Notes: generated by a model not told the origin, from the sequence alone. 64,000 nucleotides of DNA from an uncultured bacterium (GCA_963977015.1 CAXBMO010000002.1:256001-320000), one strand, 5' to 3'. Numbered from the stretch's first letter, positions 25,250-58,719 are shown. Numbers and translations are program-made.

Positions 25250-25252
25250 ACT

Positions 25253-26593: not shown

Positions 26594-26675
26594 TATTTCA
26601 CCCAATATACCTTTCTTCGCCTCGACGAAGAGTTGCGCCTGCGTCGCAAAATTTACGACTCCCGACCTGAGTGTT

Positions 26676-27983: not shown

Positions 27984-28016
27984 TCAAATTCCCGGGCGGC
28001 GGGATTGAAAATTATA

Positions 28017-29978: not shown

Positions 29979-30005
29979 AGCAGAGTTGGGGAGTTAAATG
30001 ATCCG

Positions 30006-31646: not shown

Positions 31647-32024
31647 AAACTTCCTCATCACCTGCTTCTCGTAAACTTTCAAATTTTAAACTCCACAAAC
31701 CGCAATCATGGCTCGCCCTCCCGATCCGCCATGACAATAACCTCTCAGCCTCAGCCGCTTGAGAGATCGCAGCGGACTTTGAGCGACGAGTAGAAGAAAA
31801 ACCGGGACCAGAAATCGAACAAATGGGAGCGGGTTCTCTCCAAGCCCACACCTCACCCGGATTCACGAATCCCGCTGCCCCTGAAATATTTCAGCAAAAA
31901 TAGCGTGTGTTCTGGACGGCCCCAATCAATGCTTTTTTCCCTTTCGCCTCACGACAACTCGCAATTCCGCTTTGCTCCGGAAGTTGCGAGTTTTGCGTTG
32001 GCGCCCCTGAAAATTTCCAACTCC

Positions 32025-35000: not shown

Positions 35001-35492
35001 GCGGCCCAAACCGTCCAGCACCACTGGTATGCGGCTGATCCCGCCAAAGGAGGCGGCTCAGTCGACCAGCAACAACACGAAGAAGCGGCGAAGAAGTCCG
35101 GCATCATTGCCGATTCAGCTGACCTCACGGAGATCCGGATTGCGACTCTGGTCGAAAAAATGAGCTACGATACCAAAGAACTCACGATCAAGGCTGGAAA
35201 GAAGATCCGGCTGACGTTCGCCAACCCGGACTTCATGCCGCACAACCTGCTCGTGGTTCAGCCGGGATCATCCACTGAAGTTGGAACCGCCGCGATGGCT
35301 TTGGGTGCGGAGGGCTTTGCCAAGCAATTCCGTCCGGACAGTGACAAGATCATCGCCGGCACCAAGATGCTCGATAACGGCCAGGAAGAGACCATCGAAT
35401 TCTATGCTCCGGAGAAACCTGGAAACTACGAGTTCGTCTGCACCTTCCCCGGCCACTTCATGCTGATGAAGGGCATCCTGAAGGTCAAATAA
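32025..35492 (+). CDS. PVC-type membrane-bound dehydrogenase-like protein: fucolectin/F5-8C domain, SGNH-like domain, beta-propeller, HEAT region and C-terminal azurin/auracyanin domain
   Basis: Signal peptide; [84 protein letters not shown]...[14 protein letters not shown] (type-1 Cu ligands). Confidence 0.85.
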
Positions 35493-36390: not shown

Positions 36391-38067
36391 CTATTTTTTC
36401 GTCAGTTGAAAGGGAGAATCGTGTGAGTGGTATTCGTAGAGCACGATTTTCTCATGAGGTTTCGTTCCCTTCTCGGTCGTCTGCTCCTTCACGTAGACCA
36501 TTTGCATCGCCACAATTCGCTCTGATTCATCGTGCGTCTCATTCCATTGCTTCATCAGCCATGGGACCAGGAACTTGCGATGATCCTTGTGCTTTTTGAG
36601 CCGCAGATTCATCAGATATTTGCGCCACCGCTGATTCTTGTAGGTCTTGCTCACCAAATCCGGTTTTCGCCACGTCACTCGTTCGCGGGTTCTCAGATCG
36701 ACCACTTCTCCGCTGATTTTCCGAGCCGTGAAGACATACCAACCGTCATCAAGCATTGGTTTCGGCGAGAACATGGACCAGTATTGCCTCAGTCCCGTGA
36801 CTTCGCCGATCCAGTTCAGACTCCTCGGGAAATAGGTCACATAGCGATCGAAATCCGCCGCGCGCACGTTCCAGGCGAGCACGTAGACAAAGAAAAACGC
36901 CGCGAAGGCCGAGTGGAGAACTGTCCGCACATTCGCGACCGGAATGCCCACAACGGGAACCAGCTTCTCGCGATCTTCGCTCCAACGCGGCCGAACCGGC
37001 TTGGCGCCCAAACGCAAAACCGCCAGTCCGCGGGAAATTTGGACGCTCCAGCGCAGCAAGACCTCGAATCTTGCCACCAGGGATCGCAACCAACCCAAAC
37101 TCTTGGGAATGAGTCGGTTCCAGAACAATGCTGGCAGGAAAAGCAGCCAAATCGCCGCACAGGTCCACTGAAAAAGCCCGAGATCCATGGTCAGCCGAAT
37201 CCCCAGCCAGTGAAAAGCCACAAACGTCGCAACCGTTCCGATTCGGAACCATGCATTCTTCCAGGGAATAAAGGCAACCAGCGGCCCGAAAGCTTCGAGG
37301 AAATACGTCACCATGCTCAGCGAGCGATGAAGCCACTCATGATGAAGAATCCACTTTCCGAGCGGGGTCGCAAATTGATCGACATTGAGCGCGTAATAAA
37401 TCCCCAACCCATCCCGCCACCAAATCGGATCACTTTTCAGGCCGGCAGTGAACCAGTACATGAATGCCACCTGAAAGAGAATTGCCGCCGACGCAATCGA
37501 GACGACTTGATCGGGATTTCGCATTGAAACTCCAACCGGAGGGGCCCATTCGCGATTTCTGCTGTCGAGCGACCAACGAAGCCCCAGCGGCAGAAAAAGC
37601 GCCCAAAAATGCATCACCCGAAGGAGGGCGTCGCCTCCCTGGAGAATGTATGGATTGCGATTTTGGAGCGAGCACAACAGGAAGAAAGAGACCAAGGCCG
37701 CGGTTTTGGTGCGATATCCGAGCGTCATACAGGCAGCCGCGATTCCCGCCACAACAAAGAGCAGGAGTTGGAAAATTGCGCCACCACTCATGAGGTGAAC
37801 GCTGTAGAGCCAGTTGCTGCGTTGAAAATCCGCCAACAGGTCAGCTCTCGGCAAAACCCCTGCATCGGTATAGAACACTCCCAGGTCCGCCGAGCGGACG
37901 AAGAGATCAACCAGCAAGATCAGACCGAGGCAGATCCGAAAGAGAGCGACCGAGCGAAGGTCAATTCCAAACAAGTCCCGGACCCAAACCGGAGTCGTCG
38001 AGATGCCTGATGGTTGGAAGAAACGAAGTATTTCACGAGGAAATCGCATTCTGGAATTTCGCTCCAT
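36391..38067 (-). CDS. HTTM-domain membrane protein
   Basis: FGIDLRSVALFRI, YTDAGVLPR, QNRNP..GGD, PLG.RWSLD, YWFTAGLK...W..G and QYWSMFSP. Confidence 0.85.
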   Translation of the reverse strand: MERNSRMRFPREILRFFQPSGISTTPVWVRDLFGIDLRSVALFRICLGLILLVDLFVRSADLGVFYTDAGVLPRADLLADFQRSNWLYSVHLMSGGAIFQLLLFVVAGIAAACMTLGYRTKTAALVSFFLLCSLQNRNPYILQGGDALLRVMHFWALFLPLGLRWSLDSRNREWAPPVGVSMRNPDQVVSIASAAILFQVAFMYWFTAGLKSDPIWWRDGLGIYYALNVDQFATPLGKWILHHEWLHRSLSMVTYFLEAFGPLVAFIPWKNAWFRIGTVATFVAFHWLGIRLTMDLGLFQWTCAAIWLLFLPALFWNRLIPKSLGWLRSLVARFEVLLRWSVQISRGLAVLRLGAKPVRPRWSEDREKLVPVVGIPVANVRTVLHSAFAAFFFVYVLAWNVRAADFDRYVTYFPRSLNWIGEVTGLRQYWSMFSPKPMLDDGWYVFTARKISGEVVDLRTRERVTWRKPDLVSKTYKNQRWRKYLMNLRLKKHKDHRKFLVPWLMKQWNETHDESERIVAMQMVYVKEQTTEKGTKPHEKIVLYEYHSHDSPFQLTKK

Positions 38068-38221
38068 TTAATTAATTTATCAAAAATATTATGATTACTA
38101 AATTAAATGTGTAGAATTATGGCTCCTGAAAGACTCGATCACTCAAATTCGTGATTGGTGGGGAAACCTATTGATGTCGGATCTGCGGCTTTCGCAAATC
38201 GGGTCAAAACATCCAAGTCTG

Positions 38222-39628
38222 ATGAACATAACGCACACCACGGAGGAGGGATTGAATCTTCCTTCCACTCGTCGCAACTTCCTGAGAAATTCTTCTCTTG
38301 GGTTTGGCTCACTAGCTCTTTCCGGGCTTTTGGGACAACAGCAAGCCAAGGCGTCGCTTTACCAGTCCCCGTTTGCTCCCAAGCGGGCTCATCACGCCCC
38401 GAAGGCGAAGCGAATCATCTTCCTGTGCATGAAAGGCGGTCCATCGCACATGGACATGTTCGACTACAAACCCCGACTCCAGGCTGACGACAACAAGCCG
38501 GTCAACAAAGACGGCAAGACGCGCTATCGCGGCTCCCTCTGGAATTTTTCGCAGCACGGACAGAGTGGCATGTGGTTCAGCGAACTACTTCCGAACCTCG
38601 CGACCCAGGCGGATCAACTCTGCATGTTGAACGGGATGGTCTCGGAAAATCCCGAACACGCTCAGGCACTGGATTTGCTCCATACCGGCAGTTTTCAGTT
38701 CGCCCGCCCGTCCATGGGCTCCTGGGTGCTCTACGGCCTGGGCTCCATGAACCAGGATCTCCCAGGATTCGTGACGATCAACCCACCAAGTGCATTGGGC
38801 GGCTCGAAATATTACGGCAACGCCTTTTTGCCGGCCGCTTATCAGGGAACGCCAATTGGTGGAGACAACAAGGCTCTCGCCAACGTGCAGGTCAGCAATC
38901 TTGAAAACCATCGCCTCAATCGGAAGCAGCAGCGTCAAAAGCTGGATGCGCTCCAGGCATTGAATCGCCAGCTTCTTGAAAAACGTGGTCAATCCTCGCA
39001 GCTCGAAGGCGTGATCGAGTCCTTCGAACTTGCGTTCCGGATGCAGAACGTTCTTCCCGAAGTCATGGACATTTCCGGTGAATCGGAGGCGACCAAGAAA
39101 CTCTACGGAATGGATCAGCCGGCATCGAAGAACTTTGGTCATCAGTGCCTGTTGGCCCGACGCATGGCCGAAGCCGATGTGCGATTCATCCAACTGACCG
39201 ATGATGGCTGGGATCACCACGGCGGCTTGGCCAATGGCCTTCCCCGTCGCTGCGCGTCAATCGACAAACCGATTGCCGGGCTCCTCACGGACCTTCGCCA
39301 ACGCGGATTGCTGGAGGACACCTTGATCGTCTGGGGCGGCGAGTTTGGACGGACGCCAGATGATGGAACGCGGGACGGGCGGGGTCACAACGCCACCGGA
39401 TTCACCATGTTCATGGCGGGTGCCGGCGTGAAACACGGCTTTAAGTATGGAAAGACCGACGCTCACGGCCGCAAGGCTGTCGAGGGTCAAATCGGGATTC
39501 ACGATCTCCACGCCACGATGTTGCACCTGCTCGGGCTCGATCACGAGCAACTGACGTATCCATGGGCGGGTCGCGATTTCCGCCTGACCGACGTTCATGG
39601 CCGCGTGGTTCGCGAAATTCTGGCCTAA
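38222..39628 (+). CDS. DUF1501 domain protein (Tat-exported, sulfatase-fold)
   Basis: TRRNFL signal, AKRIIFLCMKGGPSHMDMFDYKP, RPSMGSW..YGLG, WDHH, GEFGRTP and FRLTDVHG. Confidence 0.93.
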   Translation: MNITHTTEEGLNLPSTRRNFLRNSSLGFGSLALSGLLGQQQAKASLYQSPFAPKRAHHAPKAKRIIFLCMKGGPSHMDMFDYKPRLQADDNKPVNKDGKTRYRGSLWNFSQHGQSGMWFSELLPNLATQADQLCMLNGMVSENPEHAQALDLLHTGSFQFARPSMGSWVLYGLGSMNQDLPGFVTINPPSALGGSKYYGNAFLPAAYQGTPIGGDNKALANVQVSNLENHRLNRKQQRQKLDALQALNRQLLEKRGQSSQLEGVIESFELAFRMQNVLPEVMDISGESEATKKLYGMDQPASKNFGHQCLLARRMAEADVRFIQLTDDGWDHHGGLANGLPRRCASIDKPIAGLLTDLRQRGLLEDTLIVWGGEFGRTPDDGTRDGRGHNATGFTMFMAGAGVKHGFKYGKTDAHGRKAVEGQIGIHDLHATMLHLLGLDHEQLTYPWAGRDFRLTDVHGRVVREILA

Positions 39629-41622: not shown

Positions 41623-44241
41623 ATGCCGAAAATCCCTCAACTTGTAGTCCTCATCCTGGTCGGATTGCTCCCCATCGGTTTGCAGGCCGCCCCCAGCGCG
41701 GAGATCAAGGTTAGAGCAACGTCTTACTACCTGGGGAGTCCCTTCAACTTCTACGTTCAAGTCAATGGCGTGAAGAGCGCCCCGCAGCCGGATTTGCTGG
41801 AAACCGACGCGCTCCAGATTCGCTATGTTGGCGCGGCTCCAAGCTCGAGAAACGGCATCGATTCGTTCACCTTCACCTACGAGGCGATTCCGCTGAAATC
41901 GGGTAGAGTCAACATCCCCGGTGGATTGGTTAGTGTTGGCAGTCAGGATGTTCCTTTTACGTTTTCCGAGATTGAGGTGAAGCTCCCCAAGCCCACCGAC
42001 GAGATGGAGCTGACGGTCGAACTTTCCAAAACCGAGTGTTACGTCGGCGAGCCGGTTACCCTGACGTTTCACTGGACCACCAATCTCTCCCTCAACGGCG
42101 TCAAGGCCGCGGACATCCGCATTCCCGCTCTCACCGACTACCAGTTTCGGGTTCGACCTCCCGTTGGCGAGTTCGACCCTAACGCGGATAATGCGATCGG
42201 CTTGCCGGTTTCCAACGAGCGGGTCATCGCACAGTACGAAGAGACGAATCGCAACCAAAAGCCCGCAGTTCGATTGACCTTCCAAAAAATCATCATCCCC
42301 ACCAAGAGCGGCGACCTCCCCCTCCTCATCAAACCTCCAACTCTGATGTGCTCGTTTGTTGAGCCTCGCGACGGCCGCTTCAAGGGCACGCGCTATCCCA
42401 GCTACTTCAACAATGAATTTTTTGATGAAGACGTTACCGGTAGTTATCAGCGTCTCATGGTTCAGGGACAGCCCACGATGCTTCAAGTCAAGCCGCTCCC
42501 CATCGAGGGAAAACCCTCCAATTTCAGCGGAATCATTGGCTCCTTCACGCTGGATGCCCAAGCCGATCCGTTGGTGGTCGAGGTGAATGAACCAATCACG
42601 TTGTCACTCGAAGCCAAAGGCCATCCCTATCCGCATCTTCTTGAACTGCCGCCCTTTTCCTCGCAGTCGGCCTTAACCCGAAGTTTTGCGATGCCGGCAG
42701 AACAGTCCAGACCCCGGCTCGTTGACGGCATCGCCTCCTTCAGCCAAACGCTTCGTCCGCTTCGGGAAAATGTCACCGCGATCCCCGCGTTGGAATTCAG
42801 CTTTTTTGATCCGGAAATCGGCAACTATGGAGTTGCGCGAACCGCCCCCATTTCCCTGACCGTTTCCCCGGTCACGGCGGTCAATATTCTGGATGCGGAA
42901 TTCAGCGATGGTTCGGCGCTCAAAAATGTGGTGGAGCCCCAACCCGGCGGCATTTTTGCGAACTACAGCGGCCCGGAACTTCTCATCAACCGAAAACCGG
43001 AAACCTGGGCCGCCAACGCCTTTGGCTGGGTTCTGGCCTGGATCCTCCCTCCCCTTCTCTTTGGCGCCTTGTGGTATGCGACGAAGAATCTCCGGCTCGC
43101 ACGCCACAACCCGGACCTGGCGAAGAAACGAAGAGCCTTCAGCCGCTTTCGCTTCTCACTCTGGAAACTCGGACCTGATCCGGACCCCAACGATTTGAGC
43201 CGGGCGCTGAAGAGCTACCTGGAGGAACGCTTTGATGTTCCCCACTTCGAAAGCGGCGCGAGAGAACTGAGAACCATCGCGGAACAAGTAAAGGTCGATC
43301 AACATGAAGCCGACATTCTCATCGGCCTGATCGATAGTTCTTCAGCAAGCGGTTACTCCAAGCATGACGTTGAGCCTCCTGCCGTTGGGCGCGAAGGGCT
43401 TCTGCAACTGGTGCGCAGGTTGGAAGTGCAGGCCGGTCGCGCCGCCGTTGTTGTCGTTGTTGTCGTTCTGGCCATGCTGACGGCAACGCAGGCGTTCGGT
43501 GAAAATGCTCCCGATACGTTGGCGGAAGCGGAGGAGTTTTTTGCGAAGGCCAATGAAACCGCGCTTGTTGATCCCGGCAAGGCGCAGAAGTTCTATGCCC
43601 TGGCCGCCGAGCGGTTTGAGAGTCTGCGAACCGACTTTCAGATTGAGAACGGAGAACTCTACGCAAATCTGGCGAACACCCACTTCCTGGCTGGCGACAT
43701 TGGGCGTTCGATTCTCAATCTTCGTCGCGCAGAGCGATTCCGTCCCAATGATTCCCAACTCGCCGAATCGCTTCACTATGTGCGAACGCAGCGAGTGGAT
43801 ATCTTTCCCGAGAAAACGACTTCACTCTTGGTTAGACGCCTCTTCTTCTGGCATTTCCTGTTCGAGCCGCGAACGCAGGTAAAAATTGTGGCTTTTCTCT
43901 TCGCGGGAATGTGGCTGGTCCTCGGCATTCACCTTCTGCGGCCGATCAATAACCGCTGGCAAATCATCGCGGGACTTGGAGGTGTGGCTGCGGTCTTGCT
44001 CATCTCACTTCTCATCCATGCCGGCCATGATCACCGTCGTGATGCGGTCATTGTTGAAGCTGAAGTCGTCGCGCGAAAAGGTGACTCCTTCGTCTATGAC
44101 CCAGCCTTTACCAATTCCCTCCATTCGGGGACGGAAGTCCGCATCCTGGAGCAACGCCGCGATTGGCTGCACGTCAGGACTCCGAACCAGAGCGACGGCT
44201 GGATTCCCGCGAGTAGCGCAGAACGGGTGCTCCCAAATTGA
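41623..44241 (+). CDS. BatD-like protein fused to a BatE-like TPR/SH3 module
   Basis: Signal peptide, YVGEPV, QVKPLP..GKP.NFSG.IG, FSFFDP..G.Y and a TM segment (BatD). Then TPR (LYANLANTHF..GDIGRSILNLRRA), 2 TM segments and LHSGTEVRILE..W..V...GWIP (SH3, BatE). Confidence 0.8.
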   Translation: MPKIPQLVVLILVGLLPIGLQAAPSAEIKVRATSYYLGSPFNFYVQVNGVKSAPQPDLLETDALQIRYVGAAPSSRNGIDSFTFTYEAIPLKSGRVNIPGGLVSVGSQDVPFTFSEIEVKLPKPTDEMELTVELSKTECYVGEPVTLTFHWTTNLSLNGVKAADIRIPALTDYQFRVRPPVGEFDPNADNAIGLPVSNERVIAQYEETNRNQKPAVRLTFQKIIIPTKSGDLPLLIKPPTLMCSFVEPRDGRFKGTRYPSYFNNEFFDEDVTGSYQRLMVQGQPTMLQVKPLPIEGKPSNFSGIIGSFTLDAQADPLVVEVNEPITLSLEAKGHPYPHLLELPPFSSQSALTRSFAMPAEQSRPRLVDGIASFSQTLRPLRENVTAIPALEFSFFDPEIGNYGVARTAPISLTVSPVTAVNILDAEFSDGSALKNVVEPQPGGIFANYSGPELLINRKPETWAANAFGWVLAWILPPLLFGALWYATKNLRLARHNPDLAKKRRAFSRFRFSLWKLGPDPDPNDLSRALKSYLEERFDVPHFESGARELRTIAEQVKVDQHEADILIGLIDSSSASGYSKHDVEPPAVGREGLLQLVRRLEVQAGRAAVVVVVVVLAMLTATQAFGENAPDTLAEAEEFFAKANETALVDPGKAQKFYALAAERFESLRTDFQIENGELYANLANTHFLAGDIGRSILNLRRAERFRPNDSQLAESLHYVRTQRVDIFPEKTTSLLVRRLFFWHFLFEPRTQVKIVAFLFAGMWLVLGIHLLRPINNRWQIIAGLGGVAAVLLISLLIHAGHDHRRDAVIVEAEVVARKGDSFVYDPAFTNSLHSGTEVRILEQRRDWLHVRTPNQSDGWIPASSAERVLPN

Positions 44242-44249
44242 TCTGAACC

Positions 44250-47200
44250 TCAACGGTCGAAAGCCAGCCGCAAGTCTCTTTCCGAATTCGAGTCGGCACT
44301 CAAACGTGAGGCGCTCAATCGCTCCTTCAACGAAGCGGCACGGTTCCGGATGTCATCCAGGTAAGCGACACTGTCAATCGGGCCACCCTTCTTCCATGGC
44401 TCCGCCAGCCGCTCGTAAACTCCATTGACGGTTGCCGCCTGGGCTTCACCAATGGCAACGCTATCCAAAAGAAGATACTCGCAAATAAAGAGCAACACCT
44501 GCCGGTCATCCCTGGTGATGGTTTCAAACTCTTCCCGTGCCTCGATAATGCGAAACAATGATTGGATCTCACCACCCGGCTTCGAAAACGCGGAGGCAGT
44601 TTGGAAATAGAGCGAATTCGGCATGTCTGCGACCATTCCCCGAGGATCCAACTCCCGCTTCGACATCATTTCGGCAGTCCAGAGCAAGCGATACTGGTAT
44701 CCCAAATAAAACCGGTTCATCGGATGATTCTCCTGGTCCCAACCAAGAAACTCCGCATTGGAAATCGCGGCCTCGAGTTCGATGCTTGCCCGCTTCAGGT
44801 CTCCGGAAATGAATAGGTGATAGTCCGCACGGCGCTCATGAAAGTTCGGAAGCGACTCACGCCAGGCGACACTGCCCAGATATCGTTTCTCTTGAGCGTT
44901 GGTCGACATGTGAATGGCCTTCGTCAAAGCCCGGTCCGCATTGTAGGCATTCCCTGAATAGTGCGCCGCCAGTGCCTGTAGCAAATGGCAACGGATATAT
45001 TCCTGGCAGACTTCCAGGTAGATCCCTTCACCTTCGTTTTCCCGCTCGGAATCGGGATCCGCATTCAAGTTCGAAAGCTGCGCCACGGTATCAATCAACT
45101 CGCGAATCCTGATGGAGTTCGCCGACATTTCCTCGCTCTTCCGCAACTCCCAATTCTCCAGATAATAGTGGGCTTTGAACTGGTTGATGACGGCGGCCAG
45201 CAGGTGATTCCCGGCACTCAACGTCACATCCCGTTCCACGATCAGTTCCTGAAACGAGACCGCTTCAAAGCACTGCCGCAAGAGGGACATCGCCGAGTCA
45301 AAATCGTCCACTGCAGAATTGGGATCCTTATCAACCAGGGAGTTCTCGGAGGCATTGCTATCGAATTTCGACCGGGTTTTGCATTCACCACGAAAAGCCA
45401 GGACGTAGGCATGCAGAAAGCGAAACTCTCGAACGTAGTCCAACGCCTCGACCGCAGAGAAGAGAGGATCCAGGCAGACATCGAACTTGCGCCGGTAGTA
45501 ATAAAGGCGCGCCCAATCCGAATAGCACAATCCTCGCAACCCCGTCAAAATCCGGGAATTGTCCCTCCCCTGCTTTTCCTCTTTCCGGTACAATTCGGTT
45601 GCCGTCCGAAAGGCAAAAATGGCTCGATCGTAATCATTTTCGCGTCCATCAAAGGCAGAAAGCGCGGTTTGGTACTTGCTTTGAAACTCAGAATCCGTCG
45701 CGCCTTCGTCGGGTGAGGGCTTGAGGCTCGTCAACAGATTCGCGATCAGATGCCAATCGGTCGCCCGGATCTGTTTGCCCTTTTTCTCAATGAGATCCGT
45801 AATAATATCATAGCAGGCACTCCTCCCCTTCTCTTTGTCGTAACTCTTCCGGTCATCCATCAAGGCACCCAGTTCCTGCAGTTGCCGGGCCATTTCTCCA
45901 TCTTCCGGAAGCCATTTCTCTTGCAGAGTTCGATAAAATTCCGGAGCTTTTTTCGAATCCAGGATCGATTGCTTCAAACCTTCAATCTCCTGCTTCTTCC
46001 CTTTTCTCCCGTCATAAATTGCCTTCCGTATTTCCGGGGTAAACCAGGGAGAAACCTCAAACCACCACGATTGGCCGTCGAGAGCCGGAGCCAGACTAAC
46101 GAACAAAGCCTGTTGCCGTTGAATCGGCTGCCGAATGGTTTGATCGAACAGCGAGAAACTCGCCAAAACGACGAGAACAAGCATCGCCGCCAACATCGCC
46201 AACCGATAGCGGGTGCGCAGCCGCGGCATCACTTCGAAAACTGATTCCGAGCGATCCTGAATCATCACCCGCGCGCCCTTCATCTGCTCAACCTTGAAAC
46301 GGCGATTCCACTCTCCAACATGGGTTCTCGCAGCTCCGGACAACCGGATGGCGCCAACCAATTCGGGATCGGGGAGAAACTCCAACGTTTCGCTCACCGC
46401 GGATCCCTCCGGCGGACCATTCTCTTTGTCGTTGATCAACCCAAAATGGACAGCGCCACCACATTTCCCCCCCGTTGCACGAAACACATCAATCACAAAA
46501 CCGACACCGTCTTCCACGCGATCAAAAGCAAAGATCCGCGTGGTCCGAGCTTCTTCCTTCGGCAGCGTGGCCTCCTTTCCGTTGTCCAACTCAAGCGCTT
46601 CCTGAATCGCGTCGCTGAAGCGCTGGATGGACTCCCCGTTGCTAACTGCCGCCAACGCTGCCGGCTTGAGGTGATTCTGGCCTTTTCCAAGACGAGGCAG
46701 CCGTGGTTCAACGCCGGGCGGACAGTATTCCCAAACCTCCACTTCTTTGACGATTCCCTTCAGGCTGTAGGATTTGTGCCGAAACACCTTTCCATAGACT
46801 TTGGGGTCACCAAGATCATCTTCGATGAGATGCGCGACAGATGGCGATAGAATGATCTGGTTGTCCTGAGACAAGTCGTTCAAGCGATGAACGCGGTCGA
46901 CAAAGCTCCCCTGGAGTCGCCCGGATGCGTTGCGCCGCACCTTCCCGCTGTCGATGGAGAGATGATAGCGAACTTGAGGGTAATCGTAGCCCTCAGGCGC
47001 CTCGATGTCATATTTGGGGTCGAGCAGCTCCGTCGCCCATTGCCGCGCGGAATGCGGATCCTCGAACGACAGGAAACAAGCGTCACCTGTCTGATCGACA
47101 ATCTTGCCCTTGTACTTCTTGGCAAGCGCATTGGTGTGCGCACGAAAGGGAACCAGGATTTGGCGTTCGTAATTTTCGAGCCGCTCTTCGGGACTACTGC

Positions 47201-47831
47201 CCATCAGCGGCTTGAGGTCGGTGGAATGCAGAATGTCGATCACGACAAGACTCAGCCGAACGATCTCACCGGCATCTTCCTGCGATTGCCCTACGTGTTG
47301 CGTGGAACGAAGCTCAAAAATCCGAGTCGGTTTACGCTCCTTCAGCAGTTGTTGGCGTCCCAGGAAGAGAATCTCCAACTCCCCCATTTCGGCGGATGCC
47401 AGGCTTTCCGCCACGTCCTCTTCAATGTAAATCTGGTTCGGCCCGGCTTTGGCCGCAAGCGCATCGGCATGGGGCACTCCTCGGAATTCGTCTTCGTTAT
47501 CTCTTCCCGCCGTGGTGGATATGCCGATGTAAAAATTGATTGGCTCAGTCGCCCCCTCGGGAACAACCTGGAGGCCACTCTTCCCGTTCCCGATCAGAAT
47601 TCGGGAAAAATTGAGGAGATTTTTGACCTCGGAAATTTCAACGACGAACGGACTTTCGCGGTTGGCCAGGGTGGCTTTGGATTCGGCGGAACAGAATTTC
47701 TGCAGTTGCTCCGAAACCTCCAGAATGACCTGCTCGCGATACGAATCCGCCTCCTTCGTCCTACCTCGTCGGTTTCGCAGGATTTCGGCATCGGCGATAT
47801 CGATTACGACGACGAAATTCTTATGGGCCAT
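44250..47831 (-). CDS. Membrane protein with tandem class III nucleotide-cyclase-like domains and a large extracytoplasmic helical/TPR-like region
   Basis: Central domain VVIDILHST...IVDQTGDACF...LSIDSG...QGSFVDRVHRL...QIILS...SLKGI..VEVWE, flanked by two degenerate copies; TM segment at about aa 544-562. Confidence 0.75.
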   Translation of the reverse strand: MAHKNFVVVIDIADAEILRNRRGRTKEADSYREQVILEVSEQLQKFCSAESKATLANRESPFVVEISEVKNLLNFSRILIGNGKSGLQVVPEGATEPINFYIGISTTAGRDNEDEFRGVPHADALAAKAGPNQIYIEEDVAESLASAEMGELEILFLGRQQLLKERKPTRIFELRSTQHVGQSQEDAGEIVRLSLVVIDILHSTDLKPLMGSSPEERLENYERQILVPFRAHTNALAKKYKGKIVDQTGDACFLSFEDPHSARQWATELLDPKYDIEAPEGYDYPQVRYHLSIDSGKVRRNASGRLQGSFVDRVHRLNDLSQDNQIILSPSVAHLIEDDLGDPKVYGKVFRHKSYSLKGIVKEVEVWEYCPPGVEPRLPRLGKGQNHLKPAALAAVSNGESIQRFSDAIQEALELDNGKEATLPKEEARTTRIFAFDRVEDGVGFVIDVFRATGGKCGGAVHFGLINDKENGPPEGSAVSETLEFLPDPELVGAIRLSGAARTHVGEWNRRFKVEQMKGARVMIQDRSESVFEVMPRLRTRYRLAMLAAMLVLVVLASFSLFDQTIRQPIQRQQALFVSLAPALDGQSWWFEVSPWFTPEIRKAIYDGRKGKKQEIEGLKQSILDSKKAPEFYRTLQEKWLPEDGEMARQLQELGALMDDRKSYDKEKGRSACYDIITDLIEKKGKQIRATDWHLIANLLTSLKPSPDEGATDSEFQSKYQTALSAFDGRENDYDRAIFAFRTATELYRKEEKQGRDNSRILTGLRGLCYSDWARLYYYRRKFDVCLDPLFSAVEALDYVREFRFLHAYVLAFRGECKTRSKFDSNASENSLVDKDPNSAVDDFDSAMSLLRQCFEAVSFQELIVERDVTLSAGNHLLAAVINQFKAHYYLENWELRKSEEMSANSIRIRELIDTVAQLSNLNADPDSERENEGEGIYLEVCQEYIRCHLLQALAAHYSGNAYNADRALTKAIHMSTNAQEKRYLGSVAWRESLPNFHERRADYHLFISGDLKRASIELEAAISNAEFLGWDQENHPMNRFYLGYQYRLLWTAEMMSKRELDPRGMVADMPNSLYFQTASAFSKPGGEIQSLFRIIEAREEFETITRDDRQVLLFICEYLLLDSVAIGEAQAATVNGVYERLAEPWKKGGPIDSVAYLDDIRNRAASLKERLSASRLSADSNSERDLRLAFDR

Positions 47832-47895
47832 TGGTGGGAATCATAGTTTGCCTCCCCTGATGGTTGCAACCGAAAAGCCGGAACTTCACACTTCT

Positions 47896-47932
47896 AAAAA
47901 AGGAAGAAGCCCGGCCTATCCGACCGGGCTTC
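47896..47932 (-). terminator. Rho-independent terminator downstream of the DUF547 gene
   Basis: GAAGCCCGG/CCGGGCTTC stem with a T-run on the minus strand. Confidence 0.7.
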
Positions 47933-47954
47933 CGCCATAACAGCACACACAAAG

Positions 47955-48756: not shown

Positions 48757-50322
48757 CTATTCCTCAACATCCCAATCATTGGAGCGGAGTTGTTGCCGCA
48801 GTTTGCGACGATCAGCCCGATGCTGGATTTGGCGATGTTGTTTCGGGGTCAGGATTTCATCATCGCGGCCCAAGCTGCGCCCCGCCATCACTGATCCCAG
48901 CGGCTCAATTTGAGCCACGACGTCCGCGAGCCCAAACTGGTCAATCTGGGCACGAACCTGCTCGGCCGGCTTGTAGCCAATCGGGCTCTCAGAAATATCC
49001 GCCTTGCCCAAGTACCAACGCACTTCAATGTCCTTGGTCGAATTCTTGAGTTCCTGCTCCAACGCGTCCGAGTCAAAACTTCCGTCCTTTCGCCGAAACT
49101 GCCGCACCAGAGCCCGACGCGAAAGATTTCGCCCGGCCCCATGCGGAGCAAAGGAAAGATAGTCAGGATTGTCGCGCCCCAGCACCATCAAAATCGGGCT
49201 TGCCATGTTCAGCGGGATCAATCCGAGAAGCGGTCGCCCCTTTGCATCATTCCAAGCTGGCGTTGCGCCTTTGCCGTGCAAAAAGAGGTCGCCACGTTTC
49301 CAGACGAAATTGTGTTCGTTCCCAAACGCGGTGATGGATTTGGCGTTTGCTTCTTCCAGAAACCGATGATGGATGGCCTCGTGATTGGCCTTGGTCCAGC
49401 GCCCCACATACTGCAGCGCCGCCCAATAGTCCGCTCCCTTTTCGCTGTCCATGCTCAGCCAGGCCGCCGCATCCGGAACTCCGGCTGCGATTTTGGCGGT
49501 TTCCTTAATCGCGGCCTGCATTCCCCGCTTGAAGACGTGAGCCCCCAGTCCACGCGAACCATGATGGCTCACCAACACTCTCAATTCCTGCTCCTGATCA
49601 CGCTCGCGAATGGATCGGACCAATTCCCGGTAACCGGCAGCCTCCAGCCGTTGCAGGCATTCCTCCGCAAACGCAACGGTTCCCAGGAATGCAAAATGGT
49701 TTCCGTCCCCCTGATCTGCCATGTGCGCCCGAGCATGGTCTTGAAGCCCGGAAAGAAACGGATTCGTCCAAACCGGCTCATCATTGACGGGACTCGAAAC
49801 CCGATCCGCACCGACTCTTCCACCGGGACCAAATCGCGTGCTGTCAACGAGCGCATCCAGCATTGCATCGCATTCGCCTCCACCGGAAAAGAAGGTCGCA
49901 TGCATTGAGCAACAGATGTCCGAACCGTGTCCGCCGGGCAAAATCGCATTTTTCGCGGCAATCGCGCCCCCAACCGGAATATGGGCCGGAGCATTTCCGG
50001 CGGGGCAGGCGTCGGGCATGATGGCCCCGGCTTCCACAACCGGACACGCCATCAGCTCCCTCATGTATCGACGAACCAATTTCAGGTTCTTCTCGTCAAC
50101 GGGATTGGTTGCTTCGATCGCTTCACGAAAGGGCAGCGGTTTCTCCCTCATGACCATGCGCGTATCCGGCTTCGGAAAGCGTCGTTCCAAAAGCTTCACC
50201 AGGTATTTGGGATCGCTGATCCCTTTGTCGTTGAGTTCTGTTGCCTCTCTCAGAATTTGCTCCAGCACTTCCGAGTCATCCGGCCATCCCGCCTCAACGA
50301 GTTCTTGCTGCGTTAGGGGCAC
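48757..50322 (-). CDS. rtcB: RtcB-family RNA ligase
   Basis: MPDAC, IPVGG, SDICC, GDGNHF, HHGSRGLG, HNFV, HGKGATP, HGAGR and ESP..YK; likely GTG start at 50322. Confidence 0.92.
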   Translation of the reverse strand: MPLTQQELVEAGWPDDSEVLEQILREATELNDKGISDPKYLVKLLERRFPKPDTRMVMREKPLPFREAIEATNPVDEKNLKLVRRYMRELMACPVVEAGAIMPDACPAGNAPAHIPVGGAIAAKNAILPGGHGSDICCSMHATFFSGGGECDAMLDALVDSTRFGPGGRVGADRVSSPVNDEPVWTNPFLSGLQDHARAHMADQGDGNHFAFLGTVAFAEECLQRLEAAGYRELVRSIRERDQEQELRVLVSHHGSRGLGAHVFKRGMQAAIKETAKIAAGVPDAAAWLSMDSEKGADYWAALQYVGRWTKANHEAIHHRFLEEANAKSITAFGNEHNFVWKRGDLFLHGKGATPAWNDAKGRPLLGLIPLNMASPILMVLGRDNPDYLSFAPHGAGRNLSRRALVRQFRRKDGSFDSDALEQELKNSTKDIEVRWYLGKADISESPIGYKPAEQVRAQIDQFGLADVVAQIEPLGSVMAGRSLGRDDEILTPKQHRQIQHRADRRKLRQQLRSNDWDVEE

Positions 50323-50568
50323 CTTCCACAATCCCCCGAATTTCGACGACCCGCAACCTGGATGCTCCAAGGAGCGTTGGAAAATGATGACGGACGCGCA
50401 AGTTGTTCCTCCATTTTGAAGATTGGCTTCGCATGATCTTGAGATGCGGCGCTTTTCCCGACTGGAAATGCTGTTCGGGGCTTTGTGAGGCTCATCGCCG
50501 CCCCGAGCCATCATTCCCAGTCGACAAAATCACTCACAGCGCGTCTCGACCTCATTTTCAAACGCGCC

Positions 50569-52055: not shown

Positions 52056-54029
52056 TTATGCAACCCGTTGAACATTTGCGCCCTCAGGATCACCTTCTCC
52101 CAAAATGGAAATGGCTGCCTGGGTGATCTCATCAGGGCCAATGGAGGTCATACACCGAAAATCAAGCGGGCAGCGTCGCAGGAAACACGGGCTACACTCG
52201 ACATGACGGCGAATGACTTTGTGGCCGTGACCAAGCGGAGACGTCAGGCTTGGTTCCGTGGATCCAAAGATGGCGACGGTCTTGACGCCCAGCAACGCCG
52301 CCAGGTGCATGGTTCCTGTGTCGTTGGTGATGAGTAGGTGGCAATTCCGGAGTTCTTCCATCAACTCACCGATCGAGGTTTGGCCCACTTTGTTGCTCAG
52401 CTCCACTTCGCATTTTTGCTGGAAATAGTAGGACATTTCATACTCGGCGGGCGCACCATAAATACTCCAATCGACTTTCCCCCGTAGCCGGTCGTCGATC
52501 TCTTCAACCGCCTTCGCAAAGCGTTCGGTGGGATAGCGCTTCGCTTCTCCATAGACGGCCCCAGGACAAATACCAATGCGCCAGCGTCCGCTGAATTCCG
52601 GTTCGTTGTCCCGCATGGCATAAAGATCCGGATCGGTCTGATCCGCCCCAACGTAATGGGCGATTCGCATGTAGCGCCAAGCATGATGCTCGGGCGGCCC
52701 GGGGATTCTTCGCTCGGGGACCACTTGATCCAGGTAGCGCCCCCGACTGTGGCCCTTGTAGCCAACCACATGGGGCACACCTGCAAATTTCATCTCCAAC
52801 GCGGAGCGCAACGAATTTGGAAACACGATCCCGACATCAAACGGCTCCCACATATGGAGCAGGCTCTTGACCTTCAACAACGAAACCCGCCGGGGAACAC
52901 TAATGACCTGATCCACATGTCGAACCGCATTCCACAAATCGGCCGTTCCGTCCGTGCAGAGAACCGTGACGTGAGCGTCAGGCCTTCCGTTTTTGATCGC
53001 CCTGACGGTCGGAACCGACATGCAGGAATCGCCAAGCGGGTTGGGGGCACGGATGAGTATCCGAAAGGGTTTGAGATCCTTTTCGACATCAAAGTTCGGA
53101 GGAAAATCGATTCCACGCCGATAGCCACTCAGCAAAAACTCCGGATTGGGAGTTTTCCAGCGATCATGAACCCAGAACCACTCCTCTGGAGCACGACGAA
53201 TCAGCTGCTCCATCGAGTAATTGAGCTGCGCGGTAATCTGGCCACTGTCCAGCTCGGCTCCATTCTCATCGGTCATCCGAATGGGATCACCATAAACGAC
53301 TCGCCATTTCGCGATGCCATCGGGATACAAACAAACCGGAACAATTGGTGCGCCTGTGCGAATCGAGAACAACGCTGCCAAATTACTGGTGGACGCCAAC
53401 CGGCCAAAGAAAGGGCACCACAATCCCCTTCCGCCTGCGTTTTGATCGATCAAAATTCCAAGCCCACCTCCTTCACGAAGATGCTTCATCGGCCCATAAA
53501 ACCCTTTCTTGCGATCAAATAGGGTCAGTCCATCCTGCGCTCGAGACTCCAGAACGTGCTTGTTGATGAATGGATTGGAAAGCGCCTGATAAAGAGATGC
53601 GCGTTTCACACCGGGCCCCAGAGAAGCGATCTGGCTCAGCAATTCCCAAGCCCCCATGTGGGAAATCGCTACGATTGCCCCCTTGTTCTCCTCAAAAATG
53701 CTCAGGAGGATCTGCTGACTTTCATACCTGACCCGCTTCTCAATCGCAGCAGGCCGCATCAACGACAATTTAACACTCGTGAACAGATTCCTCCCGAGGG
53801 CGCAAAAGTGGCGATGGGCAATTCTACGGCATTCGGAAGCCCCCATTTCATCACCAAGCGCGATGAGAAGGTTCCGCCGAACAATCTTACGATACCCGGG
53901 AAGAAACCAGTAGGCCCACCAGCCGATGAATCCGCCAAAGATCCAGCAGAACCAAAGAGGAACGAAAACCAGGACGGATTCTACCGACCTGAGAAGGAGG
54001 TAAACGAGGTAATGGAGGATTCGCGCCAT
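52056..54029 (-). CDS. waaF: Lipid A acyltransferase (LpxL-like) fused to LPS heptosyltransferase II (GT9)
   Basis: N-terminal half: HMGAWE, LIDQ, FFG, PEEWFWVHDRWK. C-terminal half: IRAPNPLGD, FPNSLRSA, CPGAVYGEAKRYP, NDTGTMHLA, CSPCFLRRCP. Confidence 0.9.
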   Translation of the reverse strand: MARILHYLVYLLLRSVESVLVFVPLWFCWIFGGFIGWWAYWFLPGYRKIVRRNLLIALGDEMGASECRRIAHRHFCALGRNLFTSVKLSLMRPAAIEKRVRYESQQILLSIFEENKGAIVAISHMGAWELLSQIASLGPGVKRASLYQALSNPFINKHVLESRAQDGLTLFDRKKGFYGPMKHLREGGGLGILIDQNAGGRGLWCPFFGRLASTSNLAALFSIRTGAPIVPVCLYPDGIAKWRVVYGDPIRMTDENGAELDSGQITAQLNYSMEQLIRRAPEEWFWVHDRWKTPNPEFLLSGYRRGIDFPPNFDVEKDLKPFRILIRAPNPLGDSCMSVPTVRAIKNGRPDAHVTVLCTDGTADLWNAVRHVDQVISVPRRVSLLKVKSLLHMWEPFDVGIVFPNSLRSALEMKFAGVPHVVGYKGHSRGRYLDQVVPERRIPGPPEHHAWRYMRIAHYVGADQTDPDLYAMRDNEPEFSGRWRIGICPGAVYGEAKRYPTERFAKAVEEIDDRLRGKVDWSIYGAPAEYEMSYYFQQKCEVELSNKVGQTSIGELMEELRNCHLLITNDTGTMHLAALLGVKTVAIFGSTEPSLTSPLGHGHKVIRRHVECSPCFLRRCPLDFRCMTSIGPDEITQAAISILGEGDPEGANVQRVA

Positions 54030-55773: not shown

Positions 55774-58719
55774 ATGCAATTCCTCAATCCATGGCTCGCG
55801 TTCGGCCTTTTGGCGGTTTCGATCCCCATCATTATCCATATTCTCACGAGGCAAACCGGCAAAACAGTAGATTGGGGTGCCATTTTGTTTCTGCGGGATT
55901 CGATGGTGATTCGCAACCGGAGAATCCGGCTCGAGGAAGCGCTCTTGATGGCCGCCCGTTGCCTCCTCCTGGCACTGCTTGCCATGGCATTGGCCCGCCC
56001 CTTCATTCCACCGGGCTCCAATACACCGTGGTTCGCGGTTCTCCCGCTCTTTTTCTTCGGCGTGGTTTGCCTGGGAATTGGCGTCGTCCTTTGGGATTTG
56101 GTGAAGTGGCGTTGGATTCTGCTCCTGTCTGGCACAGCAGCGCTGCTTCTGTGTGTCACCCTGGTCTGGTTTGAGAAAGTCTTCAATCTCAGCCGATTCA
56201 GCAAAGGAGGACGTCAGGACATCGCCTTGATTGTCGATGCCTCGACTTCGATGGCGCTCAATTATGACGGTCAGAGCAATTTCCAGCGCGGTCTGGATGA
56301 AGTCCGCACGATCGTGAAACGCAGCCCTCGAGGAAACTCGTTCAGCCTCATCCTCGGCGGCCCCACTCCTTCCGCTCGAATTCTGACGCCAACTTCAGAT
56401 CGCGAGTTTATTCTTCAACAACTGGATGACATCAAACCGCTCGAAGGTGGCATGGCGGCCTACGATTGCCTGACCCTGGCTTCGCTGGGGCTGGCACAAG
56501 GGAGCAATCCGGCAAAGCAGATCGTCGTGATTACCGACGGCCAGAATGTCGGTTGGGAAACCAACAAACCCGGGCGGTGGGCCTTTTTGAAGGATGCATT
56601 TGAGAATCTTCCATCTACTCCGCAGGTGATCGTCCGCGAAATGCCTCTCCCTTCGCACTTCCGCAACGTCTCCCTCGCTGACATTTCCTTCTCGCGCGAC
56701 ATTGTTGGGGTCGATCGTCCCGTCAAAATTTCCGTCACGATCGAAAACACCGGCACGGAGGCGGTTTCGCCGCGGCAAGTTGAGCTTGAGGTGGATGGAA
56801 AGAACCTGGTCGACCAAACGCTGGGCCAAATGATGCCGGGCAGTAAGGAGACGCTCCACTTTACCCATCAGTTTGAATACCCGGGAGCCCACGAGATTCG
56901 TTCCCAGGTGTTCGTCGATGACGAAATTGAGCAGGACAACACCTCGACCAGCGCTCTCAACATTGTTCGGAAACTTCGGGTTCTTTTGGTGGATGGAAAC
57001 GCCGGTGCTCGCTTCTTTGACCGGGCTACCTCCTTCGCCGCGCTGGCCCTTGCGCCGGGAACCACAATCACCGCACCTGGCGCCGATCCCAACAGTGAGG
57101 AAACCATGCGTTTCCTGGTCGATCCCGAGATGGTTTCCGCGATCGATCTGACACAAATGCCTTCCCTCACCCAGTATGACGCGGTGATCCTGGCAGACAT
57201 CCCGCGAATGCCGCGGGAAGTTGCGGAAGGGCTGGAACTTTTCGTCAATCAAGGCGGTGGGTTGCTCATTGCGGCGGGTCCACGCGCTTCGAGCGAATTC
57301 TACAATTCCTGGGTTTCCAGTGACGGCCTCCCCGTCATGCCGGCACGATTGGTGGAACCGGTTGTCCCCAATCCAAACACCGATCCCATCACGGCTTCAC
57401 TTGAGACGTTTCGCCATCCCTCCGTTCGCGTGGTCGCCAATCGCAGAGAAAGTGATCTCGAGACCGGAAGTTTTGCCCACTACTGGAAGTTGAAAGAGAA
57501 TACGGGCATCGATGCGATCGTCGGAGGTCGCCTCAACAATGGAGATCCCTATCTCACCGCTCGTAAGCTCGGCCTTGGAAATCTCGTGCTGCTAGGCTCC
57601 TCTCTGGATCTGAGATCCGGCAATCTCCCAAGTCGCCAGGCTTTCGTGCCCTTCATTCACGAACTCGTCTATTTCCTGGCGAACCCTGGCAATTTTAATC
57701 TCAACCTCGCACCAAAATGGGAACTCGCCCTCCATCTGGCGGGCAACGAACACGCCTTTTCAGGCCATGGGCTGCGCGGAGAATATTTCGCCAACCGAGG
57801 CGATCGTGAACCCAAAGTCACGCGGATTGATCCTGCGATTCAGTTCAACTGGCGCGGCGGGAGCCCGGCATCCGGGATTCCCCAGGACAACTTCAAGATC
57901 CGGTGGACGGGCAGAATCCAGGCTCCCCGCTCGGCAAAGTACAAATTCAGGGCCGAGGCCGACGACTTCCTCACCGTTTACATCGACGGGCGGGATGTGC
58001 TCCGCGCCGAATATGGAAAGTCGCCTCGCGTTCGCGAAGTCTGGCTCGATGCCAATCGCCTGCACGACATCCGGATTGAGTTTCAGGAAGGCACCAGCAA
58101 CGCCCAGGCCGTCCTCTATTGGGAATGCAAAGATCTCCAACGCCAGATCGTTCCGACGTCTGCCTTCCGCTCAGTAACCGGTTCGGAAGAAGACGTCATT
58201 GCCACCTACCGCGTCACCGGTCCCAGCGGCGAAAAACGAGTCGCCAAGATCGAGGCAACGGCCGGAGGAGCCGTCGCGAAAATCCAGGGAGATGTCGCGG
58301 CGGGAACCTACCAGATTCACATTCCTGATGATCAGCGCGAGAAGTTCAACGAATTGCTGGGCGACGACCGGGACACGATCCCGTTTACGGTGAAACGCGA
58401 CCCCGCCGAAAGCCGGCTTCAGCCCCTCACCAACGCAGATAAGGAATTTCTCGCCAACTACGTGGGATTGGTCGAGCCGCAGACTCCCGAGGACGTCATC
58501 TCGATTTTGAACGGAAAGTCTTTTGGAGAGGAGTTGTGGAAGTATCTCGCCCTCGCGGCCCTTTTCTTCCTGCTCCTGGAGGTGGGTTTGTCACGCTGGA
58601 TTGCGACGTCCCGGCAAATGGCGCAGGATCAACGGATCAAGTTCGATACAACGGAAGCCCCAGGGAATGGGTTTGAGAAGCAACTCAAGCAGGTCAAAAA
58701 GAAGGCAGCCGCTGCCTAA
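55774..58719 (+). CDS. BatA N-terminal domain, VWA, CARDB-like, glutamine-amidotransferase-like and PA14 membrane protein
   Basis: MQFLNP...PIIIH..R, MALARP, VDASTSM (MIDAS), ITDGQ, VLLVDG, GLRGEYF..RIDPAIQFNW..F.IRWTG (PA14) and ELWKYL TM segment. Confidence 0.85.
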   Translation: MQFLNPWLAFGLLAVSIPIIIHILTRQTGKTVDWGAILFLRDSMVIRNRRIRLEEALLMAARCLLLALLAMALARPFIPPGSNTPWFAVLPLFFFGVVCLGIGVVLWDLVKWRWILLLSGTAALLLCVTLVWFEKVFNLSRFSKGGRQDIALIVDASTSMALNYDGQSNFQRGLDEVRTIVKRSPRGNSFSLILGGPTPSARILTPTSDREFILQQLDDIKPLEGGMAAYDCLTLASLGLAQGSNPAKQIVVITDGQNVGWETNKPGRWAFLKDAFENLPSTPQVIVREMPLPSHFRNVSLADISFSRDIVGVDRPVKISVTIENTGTEAVSPRQVELEVDGKNLVDQTLGQMMPGSKETLHFTHQFEYPGAHEIRSQVFVDDEIEQDNTSTSALNIVRKLRVLLVDGNAGARFFDRATSFAALALAPGTTITAPGADPNSEETMRFLVDPEMVSAIDLTQMPSLTQYDAVILADIPRMPREVAEGLELFVNQGGGLLIAAGPRASSEFYNSWVSSDGLPVMPARLVEPVVPNPNTDPITASLETFRHPSVRVVANRRESDLETGSFAHYWKLKENTGIDAIVGGRLNNGDPYLTARKLGLGNLVLLGSSLDLRSGNLPSRQAFVPFIHELVYFLANPGNFNLNLAPKWELALHLAGNEHAFSGHGLRGEYFANRGDREPKVTRIDPAIQFNWRGGSPASGIPQDNFKIRWTGRIQAPRSAKYKFRAEADDFLTVYIDGRDVLRAEYGKSPRVREVWLDANRLHDIRIEFQEGTSNAQAVLYWECKDLQRQIVPTSAFRSVTGSEEDVIATYRVTGPSGEKRVAKIEATAGGAVAKIQGDVAAGTYQIHIPDDQREKFNELLGDDRDTIPFTVKRDPAESRLQPLTNADKEFLANYVGLVEPQTPEDVISILNGKSFGEELWKYLALAALFFLLLEVGLSRWIATSRQMAQDQRIKFDTTEAPGNGFEKQLKQVKKKAAAA

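Follow-up and report, generated by a model that had tools for sequence, protein, structure and literature searches.

A rare receptor family with three tandem class III cyclase-homology domains, of which the middle one alone keeps the catalytic residues

Few signalling enzymes are understood as well as the class III nucleotidyl cyclases, whose textbook logic is that of two domains which build one or two sites at their interface, the pair of metal-binding aspartates coming from one subunit and the base-recognising and transition-state residues from the other. In PMC11224242 class III cyclases are described as dimers arranged head to tail, whose active sites lie where the two partners meet. Departures from the canonical site are also described: Ma1120 has an alanine at the transition-state position and its A164N mutant loses activity (PMC4215837), and XC_0250 of Xanthomonas campestris, with leucine and alanine at the transition-state positions, makes cGMP (PMC3770947). 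Since both enzymes are active, non-canonical transition-state residues do not preclude activity. As for receptors, PMC11032199 describes receptor kinases of Planctomycetota with a predicted cytoplasmic kinase and periplasmic arrays of TPR or WD40 repeats. Here we analyse a gene that joins elements of these systems. It lies in a 64,000-nucleotide stretch of DNA (the window) from an uncultured bacterium (GCA_963977015.1 CAXBMO010000002.1:256001-320000), the host being a marine Verrucomicrobiota bacterium, and it runs on the minus strand from an ATG start to the stop codon inclusive (44250..47831), encoding a protein of 1193 aa, P0001. The N-terminal part of P0001 consists of three tandem class III cyclase-homology domains (CHDs; d1, d2 and d3), of which the middle one alone keeps the catalytic set. 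A receptor of this kind departs from the two-domain scheme and asks how pseudo-cyclase domains serve. The reading that we tentatively prefer, with a confidence that stays short of even, takes P0001 to be a receptor that dimerises and in which a sensor in the periplasm controls a nucleotidyl cyclase formed by a d2:d2' pair, d1 and d3 being its pseudo-cyclase partners.

The three domains follow each other closely (all coordinates of the gene and its parts are on the minus strand). Domain d1 (aa 1-182; 47286..47831) is a degenerate CHD recognised by profiles, ESM features and the order of its secondary-structure elements, and d2 (aa 186-372; 46716..47276) is a well-conserved class III cyclase-fold domain by fold, profile and residue matches. 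Next comes a Pro/Arg-rich linker, PPGxEPRxPRxGKGQ (aa 373-387; 46671..46715), which stands out by its conserved columns; a similar P/R-rich tail also trails the CHD in relatives. Domain d3 (aa 388-535; 46227..46670), identified from its fold when modelled alone, is a degenerate CHD that lacks helix 1 and every one of the catalytic residues. To compare the domains, sub-profiles were cut from an eight-member alignment (A1) at aa 1-182, 186-376 and 395-540. In hhalign, d1 matched d2 over 137 columns and d2 matched d3 over 125 columns, both with E = 1.8e-6, while a direct similarity of d1 to d3 was without support (E = 0.13). A separate profile built from 37 outside CHDs recovered all three domains (d1, E = 1e-10 over 167 columns; d2, E = 1.9e-33; d3, E = 4.1e-8 over 104 columns).

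Structure comparisons point the same way. Residues 235-372 match the cyclase-fold protein 3mr7 when P0001 is searched with HMMER against PDB sequences (E = 0.0055), and 3mr7 is also a profile match of d2 in the PDB (E = 4e-4). An AF2 model of aa 1-545 built from eight sequences (predicted local distance difference test, pLDDT, 70.2; predicted template modelling score, pTM, 0.45) shows three successive copies of one strand-and-helix order, d3 lacking helix 1; with a pTM of 0.45 the packing of the domains is unreliable and was left uninterpreted. In this model d2 superposes on Ma1120 (5d0h_A) over 162 of 162 residues (VIA Z 22.4, root-mean-square deviation (rmsd) 1.8 Å), and it is also similar to Rv1900c (Z 21.7) and to sGC, CyaC and others at Z of about 20; 303 of the 997 chains compared reached Z >= 8, and those listed are cyclases. 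Because d2 filled the hit list of the aa 1-545 model, d3 was folded by itself (aa 376-545; pLDDT 85, pTM 0.81). Foldseek then returned class III cyclases as the top matches of d3, the best being Ma1120 (E = 1e-8, TM 0.67/0.70), and in a search independent of Foldseek class III-type cyclases took places 1-25 of 48,161 representative chains, led by Rv1900c (Z 17.7, rmsd 2.3 Å, 146 residues aligned), below which the score dropped to Z 8.1 (Cas10 and GGDEF palm domains). For d1, whose pLDDT ranges from 33 to 81 per block in the aa 1-545 model, of the 30 named ESM-Atlas clusters closest to it 29 carry PF00211 (top score 0.96), and aa 88-149 of the A1 profile weakly match Ma1120 in the PDB. Altogether, these results demonstrate that d2 and d3 are class III CHDs, and the assignment of d1 is well supported. 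The initial annotation had seen three cyclase-like repeats in this part of the protein, and the profile comparisons, together with the folds of d2 and d3 taken domain by domain, agree with it, although the PF00211 profile itself stays silent.

The alignments to 3mr7 (HMMER) and to Ma1120 (profiles) place D199 and D250 of d2 on the two metal-binding aspartates and R316 on the transition-state arginine. They also place D246 on the substrate-specifying lysine, R305 on the substrate-specifying aspartate and D312 on the asparagine (the roles of the metal, specificity and transition-state positions being those given in PMC4215837 and PMC3770947). Thus d2 lacks the canonical Asn-Arg pair, with the arginine present (R316) and an aspartate at the asparagine position (D312), and it lacks both canonical specificity pairs (Lys/Asp for ATP; Glu and a small residue for GTP), having D246/R305 instead. 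All of D199, D246, D250, D312 and R316 are invariant in the eight full-length members of the family, and D199, D250 and R316 are kept in 9/9 members when the fragment P0009 is counted. The invariant D246 at the 'Lys' position argues against a plain K/D-type specificity for ATP. By comparison, d1 retains only the first metal Asp (D11; D or E in 8/8 members), its second Asp, Asn and Arg being gone. The share of invariant columns in the eight-member alignment is 37% in d2, 12% in d1 and 10% in d3, and it reaches 35% in the segment around the d2-d3 linker (aa 373-395). That only the second domain keeps both metal aspartates and the transition-state arginine, the flanking domains being degenerate, had been proposed in the initial annotation and is borne out by alignment and conservation alike.

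Behind the cyclase part lies a single transmembrane (TM) helix (aa 544-562; 46146..46202; 2.65 in a 19-residue Kyte-Doolittle window), which is found at the same place in 8/8 members and has four arginines on its N-terminal flank. A further hydrophobic stretch at aa 1112-1130 (score 1.7) was rejected as a TM helix, as it is seen in P0001 only among the eight members and lies inside a conserved helical region. The helix is followed by a juxtamembrane segment with the motif WWF(E/D)xSPWFTP, predicted to be periplasmic (aa 569-610; 46002..46127; 33% invariant columns), and by a C-terminal helical TPR-like region, the presumed periplasmic sensor (aa 611-1193; 44253..46001). The TPR-like assignment draws on homology, on ESM features, which bring this region nearest to TPR clusters (score 0.90), and on a faint TPR_8 match (E = 0.36) that is the sole Pfam match of the whole protein; NCBIfam returned 0 families for P0001, and no protein kinase domain was found in it (no Pkinase match at E <= 10 in Pfam). 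Residues 872-1119 are homologous to residues 882-1153 of P0011 (E = 1.5e-20) and to parts of P0012, P0015, P0018 and others. The TM helix and the WWF motif also occur in cyclase-kinase and kinase receptors (P0012, P0013, P0032, P0033, P0046, P0061 and P0066), and the whole TM/WWF/sensor module is met in three contexts, CHD-TM-sensor (P0015), CHD-kinase-TM-sensor (P0011, P0012, P0013, P0032, P0033 and P0046) and kinase-TM-sensor (P0061 and P0066). Of 32 genome loci recovered with patterns of the family, 30 match only the TM-sensor half, nearly all of them in Planctomycetota. The predicted topology of the Planctomycetota kinases, together with an N-terminus of a nucleotide-using type, suggests that the N-terminus of P0001 is cytoplasmic and the C-terminal 630 aa periplasmic, and the four arginines before the TM helix agree with a cytoplasmic N-terminus. 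These findings fit the earlier description of a receptor-like protein with one TM helix and a helical, TPR-like part of about 630 aa, which is now supported by the Kyte-Doolittle profile, the faint TPR_8 match, the ESM features, the TPR-bearing relatives and a TM helix, motif and sensor held in common with Planctomycetota receptor kinases; the initial annotation had also singled out the WWFEVSPWFTP-containing region for a search, and its carriers are the cyclase-kinase and kinase receptors and the 30 mostly planctomycetal loci just named.

We propose the following mechanism for P0001. It would be a single-pass and probably dimeric receptor, with the sensor in the periplasm and the N-terminal 540 aa in the cytoplasm. 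Domain d2, having both metal aspartates, the arginine and the strongest constraint, is the only candidate for a working centre, and d1 and d3 would be decayed copies whose most probable role is that of a scaffold or of regulatory partners. Because d1 and d3 supply neither of the two residue sets, a complete site could form only between two d2 domains; catalysis, if any, would need a d2:d2' pair across two receptor chains, and this pair would be gated by ligand-driven changes in the sensor. The likely output would be a cyclic nucleotide made from a nucleoside triphosphate. Dimerisation, catalysis, product and sensor location are all features that we infer for P0001. A two-copy dimer model of d2 (aa 186-376 of A1) scored 0.01 in both runs and weighs neither for nor against such a pair. 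The genome of the window contains 6 matches to cyclic nucleoside monophosphate (cNMP)-binding domains besides 7 canonical matches to PF00211; this bacterium thus has proteins that could read a cyclic nucleotide.

Domain pairing could instead be intramolecular, d2 associating with d1 or d3 of the same chain in the manner of C1-C2 pseudo-heterodimers; the chain would then hold at most one crippled or regulatory pocket and the third domain would be free for dimerisation. In soluble adenylyl cyclase (sAC), tandem CHDs regularly pair inside a single chain, and chains of the human enzyme (5iv4) are the top Foldseek matches of the model (E = 1.2e-10, 467 columns), AC5 aligns over model residues 2-375, and PMC11224242 describes clade A PycC proteins with two consecutive cyclase domains; the conservation of the first metal position of d1 in every member would also suit such a pair. 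These two-domain alignments, however, have rmsd values of 17-22 Å, so that the modelled domains are not arranged as in C1-C2, and the low pTM of the model makes its packing unreliable. Moreover, the lack of the second Asp, the Asn position and the Arg in d1 and d3 leaves no complete site within one chain, and the linkers are short (about 12 and about 17 residues). We therefore regard a pseudo-heterodimer within the chain as unlikely.

Several observations weigh against the gated d2:d2' cyclase. They concern first the pocket of d2, which we compared across a wider set, a d2-type CHD being present in 105 of 112 proteins (9 family members and 96 outside relatives). Arginine and lysine at positions 290 and 358 touch the triphosphate in canonical cyclases. 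Position 290 is histidine in the family vs R or K in 89/96 relatives, position 294 is aspartate vs histidine in 94/96, and position 358 is glutamine in 6/8 members vs K or R in 86/96. The second specificity position also varies inside the triple-CHD family: at position 305 the nine members (fragment P0009 included) have R, R, T, T, T, L, F, N and L, R305 thus occurring in 2/9, whereas D246 is invariant. Then, PF00211 finds none of d1, d2 and d3 in the Pfam scan, even at E <= 10, and P0001 is absent from the seven PF00211 matches of the six-frame genome search; since relatives of d2 do match this family (PF00211 at E <= 0.001 in 24 of the 31 relatives scanned, 19 of them above the gathering score), the homology of P0001 to PF00211 is transitive. 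In addition, a long branch (2.21) leads to the triple-CHD family in the CHD tree, in keeping with a changed function, and neither a cNMP-binding gene nor a phosphodiesterase gene adjoins the P0001 gene.

Much of this would suit an N-terminus that is a pseudo-cyclase throughout, in which d2 would have ceased to cyclise nucleotides and would act as a binding site for a nucleotide, metal or protein partner, the receptor signalling by conformational change or recruitment. A role of this kind was suggested in PMC7159879 for inactive cNMP-cyclase domains of other systems. The loss of R/K-290, H-294 and K-358, near-invariant in the 96 relatives, the silence of PF00211, the long branch and the clear decay of d1 and d3 all speak for such a receptor; d3 matches PDB entry 6yii, titled a class III adenylyl cyclase-like ATP-binding protein (Z 10.2), and the CHD of the relatives, placed ahead of an active-looking kinase, could be regulatory. 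Yet the metal aspartates and the arginine are invariant in all nine members, and a domain that only binds needs them less. The substitutes H290 and D294 do not vary among the members either, which argues for a pocket that was rebuilt rather than decayed, and XC_0250 and Ma1120 work despite odd active sites. We consider a wholly non-catalytic N-terminus the main rival, if on the whole a rather doubtful one.

The wider set also changes how the residues of d2 are to be read. Of the 96 outside relatives, 95 keep D199, all 96 keep D250 and 95 keep R316. The 'Asn' position is aspartate in 89/96, so the Asn-to-Asp change, listed for this protein in the initial annotation, marks the whole subfamily and is not peculiar to P0001. 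Guanylyl cyclases have a glutamate at the first specificity position. Among the relatives, positions 246 and 305 co-vary, with D/R in 32 of the 96 (the commonest state), K/D in 18, S/N in 17, E/R in 6 and the rest scattered, and members with E/R, E/G and E/Q also belong to the subfamily. On a quick IQ-TREE tree of 104 rows (the short row P0107 was dropped, and 50 of the 101 inner branches are unsupported), four pair labels required 8 changes vs a mean of 35.6 for shuffled labels, and D/R alone up to 4 changes vs a shuffled mean of 25.0; the well-supported branches are compatible with one origin of D/R. A coupled change of specificity positions is what would be expected if base recognition were under selection, and the co-variation makes the two positions look functional and a substrate other than ATP possible. 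Most of the scanned relatives have an N-terminal CHD ahead of a Ser/Thr kinase, others being CHAT-CHD-CHASE2 or CHD-STAND-TPR proteins. A large D/R clade holds CHD-TPR and CHD-kinase-WD40 proteins and proteins in which the CHD, with or without a kinase, is followed by FGE-sulfatase or PD40.

From the charge reversal alone, d2 might be taken for a cyclase of a nucleotide other than ATP, either GTP or a pyrimidine nucleotide as in Pycsar. The initial annotation had pointed to such a swap, and the part of it that stands is the presence of D246/R305 and its recurrence in the subfamily; as a family trait it does not stand, R305 being found in two members only. A specificity for another nucleotide would accord with the recurrent and co-varying D/R pair and its few changes on the tree, with the E/R, E/G and E/Q members of the same subfamily, and with XC_0250, a CHD-TPR guanylate cyclase. 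Set against this are the scarcity of R305 within the family and the compatibility of the tree with a single origin of D/R. Furthermore, no PADLOC model was matched and no Pycsar-type effector adjoins the gene, d3 resembles pyrimidine cyclases (Z 11.8-12.6) less than adenylyl and guanylyl cyclases (Z 14-17.7), and two residues are insufficient to read a specificity. A non-ATP cyclase deduced from this charge pair is thus improbable in our judgement. A Pycsar-like anti-phage role was rejected, with 0 PADLOC families at E <= 10 and neither a PycTM nor a PycTIR effector adjoining.

Taken further, the N-terminal 'VD-x-x-x-R' CHDs of single-pass receptors in the Planctomycetota-Verrucomicrobiota-Chlamydiota (PVC) group might form a large branch of cyclases in which coupled switches of the specificity pair lead to different second messengers. 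The triple-CHD family would be a derived member of this branch, its d2:d2' pair forming an acidic His/Asp pocket (D246, H290, D294 and D312) that makes or binds a nucleotide other than cAMP on a periplasmic cue and is controlled by the two pseudo-cyclase domains. We offer this picture as speculation to which we attach only a low probability.

The triple-CHD family is rare, with about nine sequences. Seven full-length relatives, sharing 33-78% identity with P0001, emerged from a word-indexed search among 5.8 billion proteins, and an exhaustive HMMER run on 1.84 billion cluster representatives returned 108 proteins at E <= 0.001, among them 4 full-length members and the fragments P0009 and P0010. 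Two further copies are present in Verrucomicrobiota metagenome-assembled genomes (MAGs) of one species-level genome collection, a metagenome scan added an identical copy (L035) and the locus L036, and the metagenome copies come from marine samples. In a sample of 201 genomes of the order, 2 encode a P0001-type protein, one of them being the window's own genome (G000; 6.9 Mb, 95% complete), which has in addition a second paralog, 49% identical, on contig C11. Loci of the paralog are L034 (G000:C11:57815-61318), L036 (1732-5337) and L001 (568-4155); L034 and L036 are apparently one locus, because their open reading frames (ORFs) and flanking genes match. A sigma-54-dependent response regulator is encoded upstream of the paralog in L034 and L036. 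All three loci, of which L001 comes from a different MAG, have an EamA transporter gene that follows the paralog after only a few bases, and beyond the EamA gene L001 and L036 have a gene for a GspS-like, circularly permuted ATP-grasp protein.

At its own locus, the P0001 gene has a GC content close to that of its surroundings. A terminator-like hairpin (47905..47933, minus strand; 12-bp stem with 8 GC pairs, then a T run) stands behind the upstream DUF547 gene, and a promoter-like site, TTGCAA-18-TATGAT (47840..47869, minus strand; a match to the consensus only), ends 9 bases 5' of the ATG. Downstream, a BatD-like gene (41623-44241) is convergent, 8 bases separating the two ORF ends. The hairpin, the promoter-like site and the convergent neighbour together indicate that the P0001 gene is its own transcription unit, in agreement with the earlier reading of a gene that stands alone with a terminator just upstream. 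The neighbours (BatD-like, TRAP transporter, DUF547, RtcB-like and sulfatase genes) are uninformative for function. No conserved neighbourhood was found around the P0001 gene of the window, and the locus L002/L037 has other neighbours.

The window holds further features of some note. Proteins of the Bat (aerotolerance-operon) type are encoded apart from each other, the BatD-like protein of 872 aa with a C-terminal SH3 domain at 41623-44241 (plus strand) and a BatA-VWA-CARDB-PA14 protein of 981 aa at 55774-58719 (plus strand). The RtcB-like ORF (48757-50514, minus strand; 585 aa) matches Pfam RtcB at aa 259-542 only (profile positions 141-424), leaving about 250 N-terminal aa outside the match, and its listed start may be too far upstream. 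A 657-aa ORF at 52056-54029 (minus strand) joins a lipid A biosynthesis acyltransferase domain (aa 4-293) to a glycosyltransferase domain of family 9 (heptosyltransferase; aa 397-622), an apparent fusion of two steps of lipopolysaccharide-core synthesis. A run of polysaccharide-synthesis genes (Wzy_C, Polysacc_synt, Bac_transf) occupies 23948-31508 (minus strand), with a high AT skew of 0.22-0.24 at 24001-28000, and includes ORFs at 25253-26785 and 28017-29978 without a Pfam match at E <= 1e-5. At 31905-35492 (plus strand) a 1195-aa protein carries F5/8 type C, GDSL lipase, DUF7133 and C-terminal cupredoxin/plastocyanin-like domains, and a 558-aa ORF at 36391-38067 (minus strand), without a Pfam family at E <= 0.001, adjoins a DUF1501 gene (38171-39628).

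In the literature, outside subscription journals and supplements, we found no description of a three-CHD protein, of the CHD subfamily of d2 or of the PVC cyclase-kinase architecture; PMC4886424 deals with DUF2652 proteins, not with the triple-CHD family. The arrangement and the residue pattern are new, and the parts are of known kinds (CHD, pseudo-CHD, single-pass receptor, TPR-like sensor). An architecture that is new as a whole is more than the comparison allows: CHDs of the subfamily are common before Ser/Thr kinases, TPR, WD40 and FGE domains, and the TM-sensor half is shared with Planctomycetota kinases. The triple-CHD family itself is rare and gives no hint of medical or ecological importance. 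The d2 subfamily is sizeable, found on receptor kinases and on receptors of the TPR, WD40 and FGE types, its named loci being mostly from Planctomycetota and Verrucomicrobiota, and its coupled specificity pairs offer a testable handle on nucleotide specificity in a seemingly unassayed branch of signalling.

Compared with described enzymes, P0001 resembles each in part. Like P0001, XC_0250 has an N-terminal cyclase domain followed by TPRs, odd transition-state residues and the metal Asp pair (PMC3770947), a likeness drawn from its description only; it differs in its single CHD, its experimentally shown activity on GTP and the gene for a cGMP receptor that is linked to it, and the account in PMC3770947, as far as it was available, mentions no TM helix. 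sAC (ADCY10) and the membrane adenylyl cyclases, the top Foldseek matches, likewise have several CHDs per chain and one degenerate site. Theirs, however, are two domains with the catalytic residues split between C1 and C2, whereas P0001 has three and d2 holds all that remain, and the sAC arrangement does not superpose on the P0001 model (rmsd about 19 Å). Ma1120 and Rv1900c are the best structural matches of d2 and also of d3. Ma1120 shares with d2 the absence of the catalytic Asn (Ala in Ma1120; PMC4215837), but both enzymes are single-CHD homodimers at 17-19% identity, with a K/D pair in Ma1120. Clade A PycC and 6yii are, like P0001, bacterial proteins with tandem CHDs (PMC11224242 for PycC), 6yii being the match of d3 noted above, but they have two domains, are soluble and belong to a phage-defence setting. 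The Planctomycetota cyclase-kinase receptors (P0011, P0012, P0013, P0032, P0033 and P0046) have an N-terminal CHD of the d2 subfamily (E = 1e-13 to 1e-19) and share with P0001 nearly the same TM position, the juxtamembrane motif and a homologous C-terminal region. They differ from it in having one CHD, a kinase at the place of d3 and no d1, and their specificity pair is mostly S/N, with R/K-290, H-294 and K-358 kept. The triple-CHD family is thus a variant of this PVC receptor type, in which d3 stands at the kinase's place and d1 has been added.

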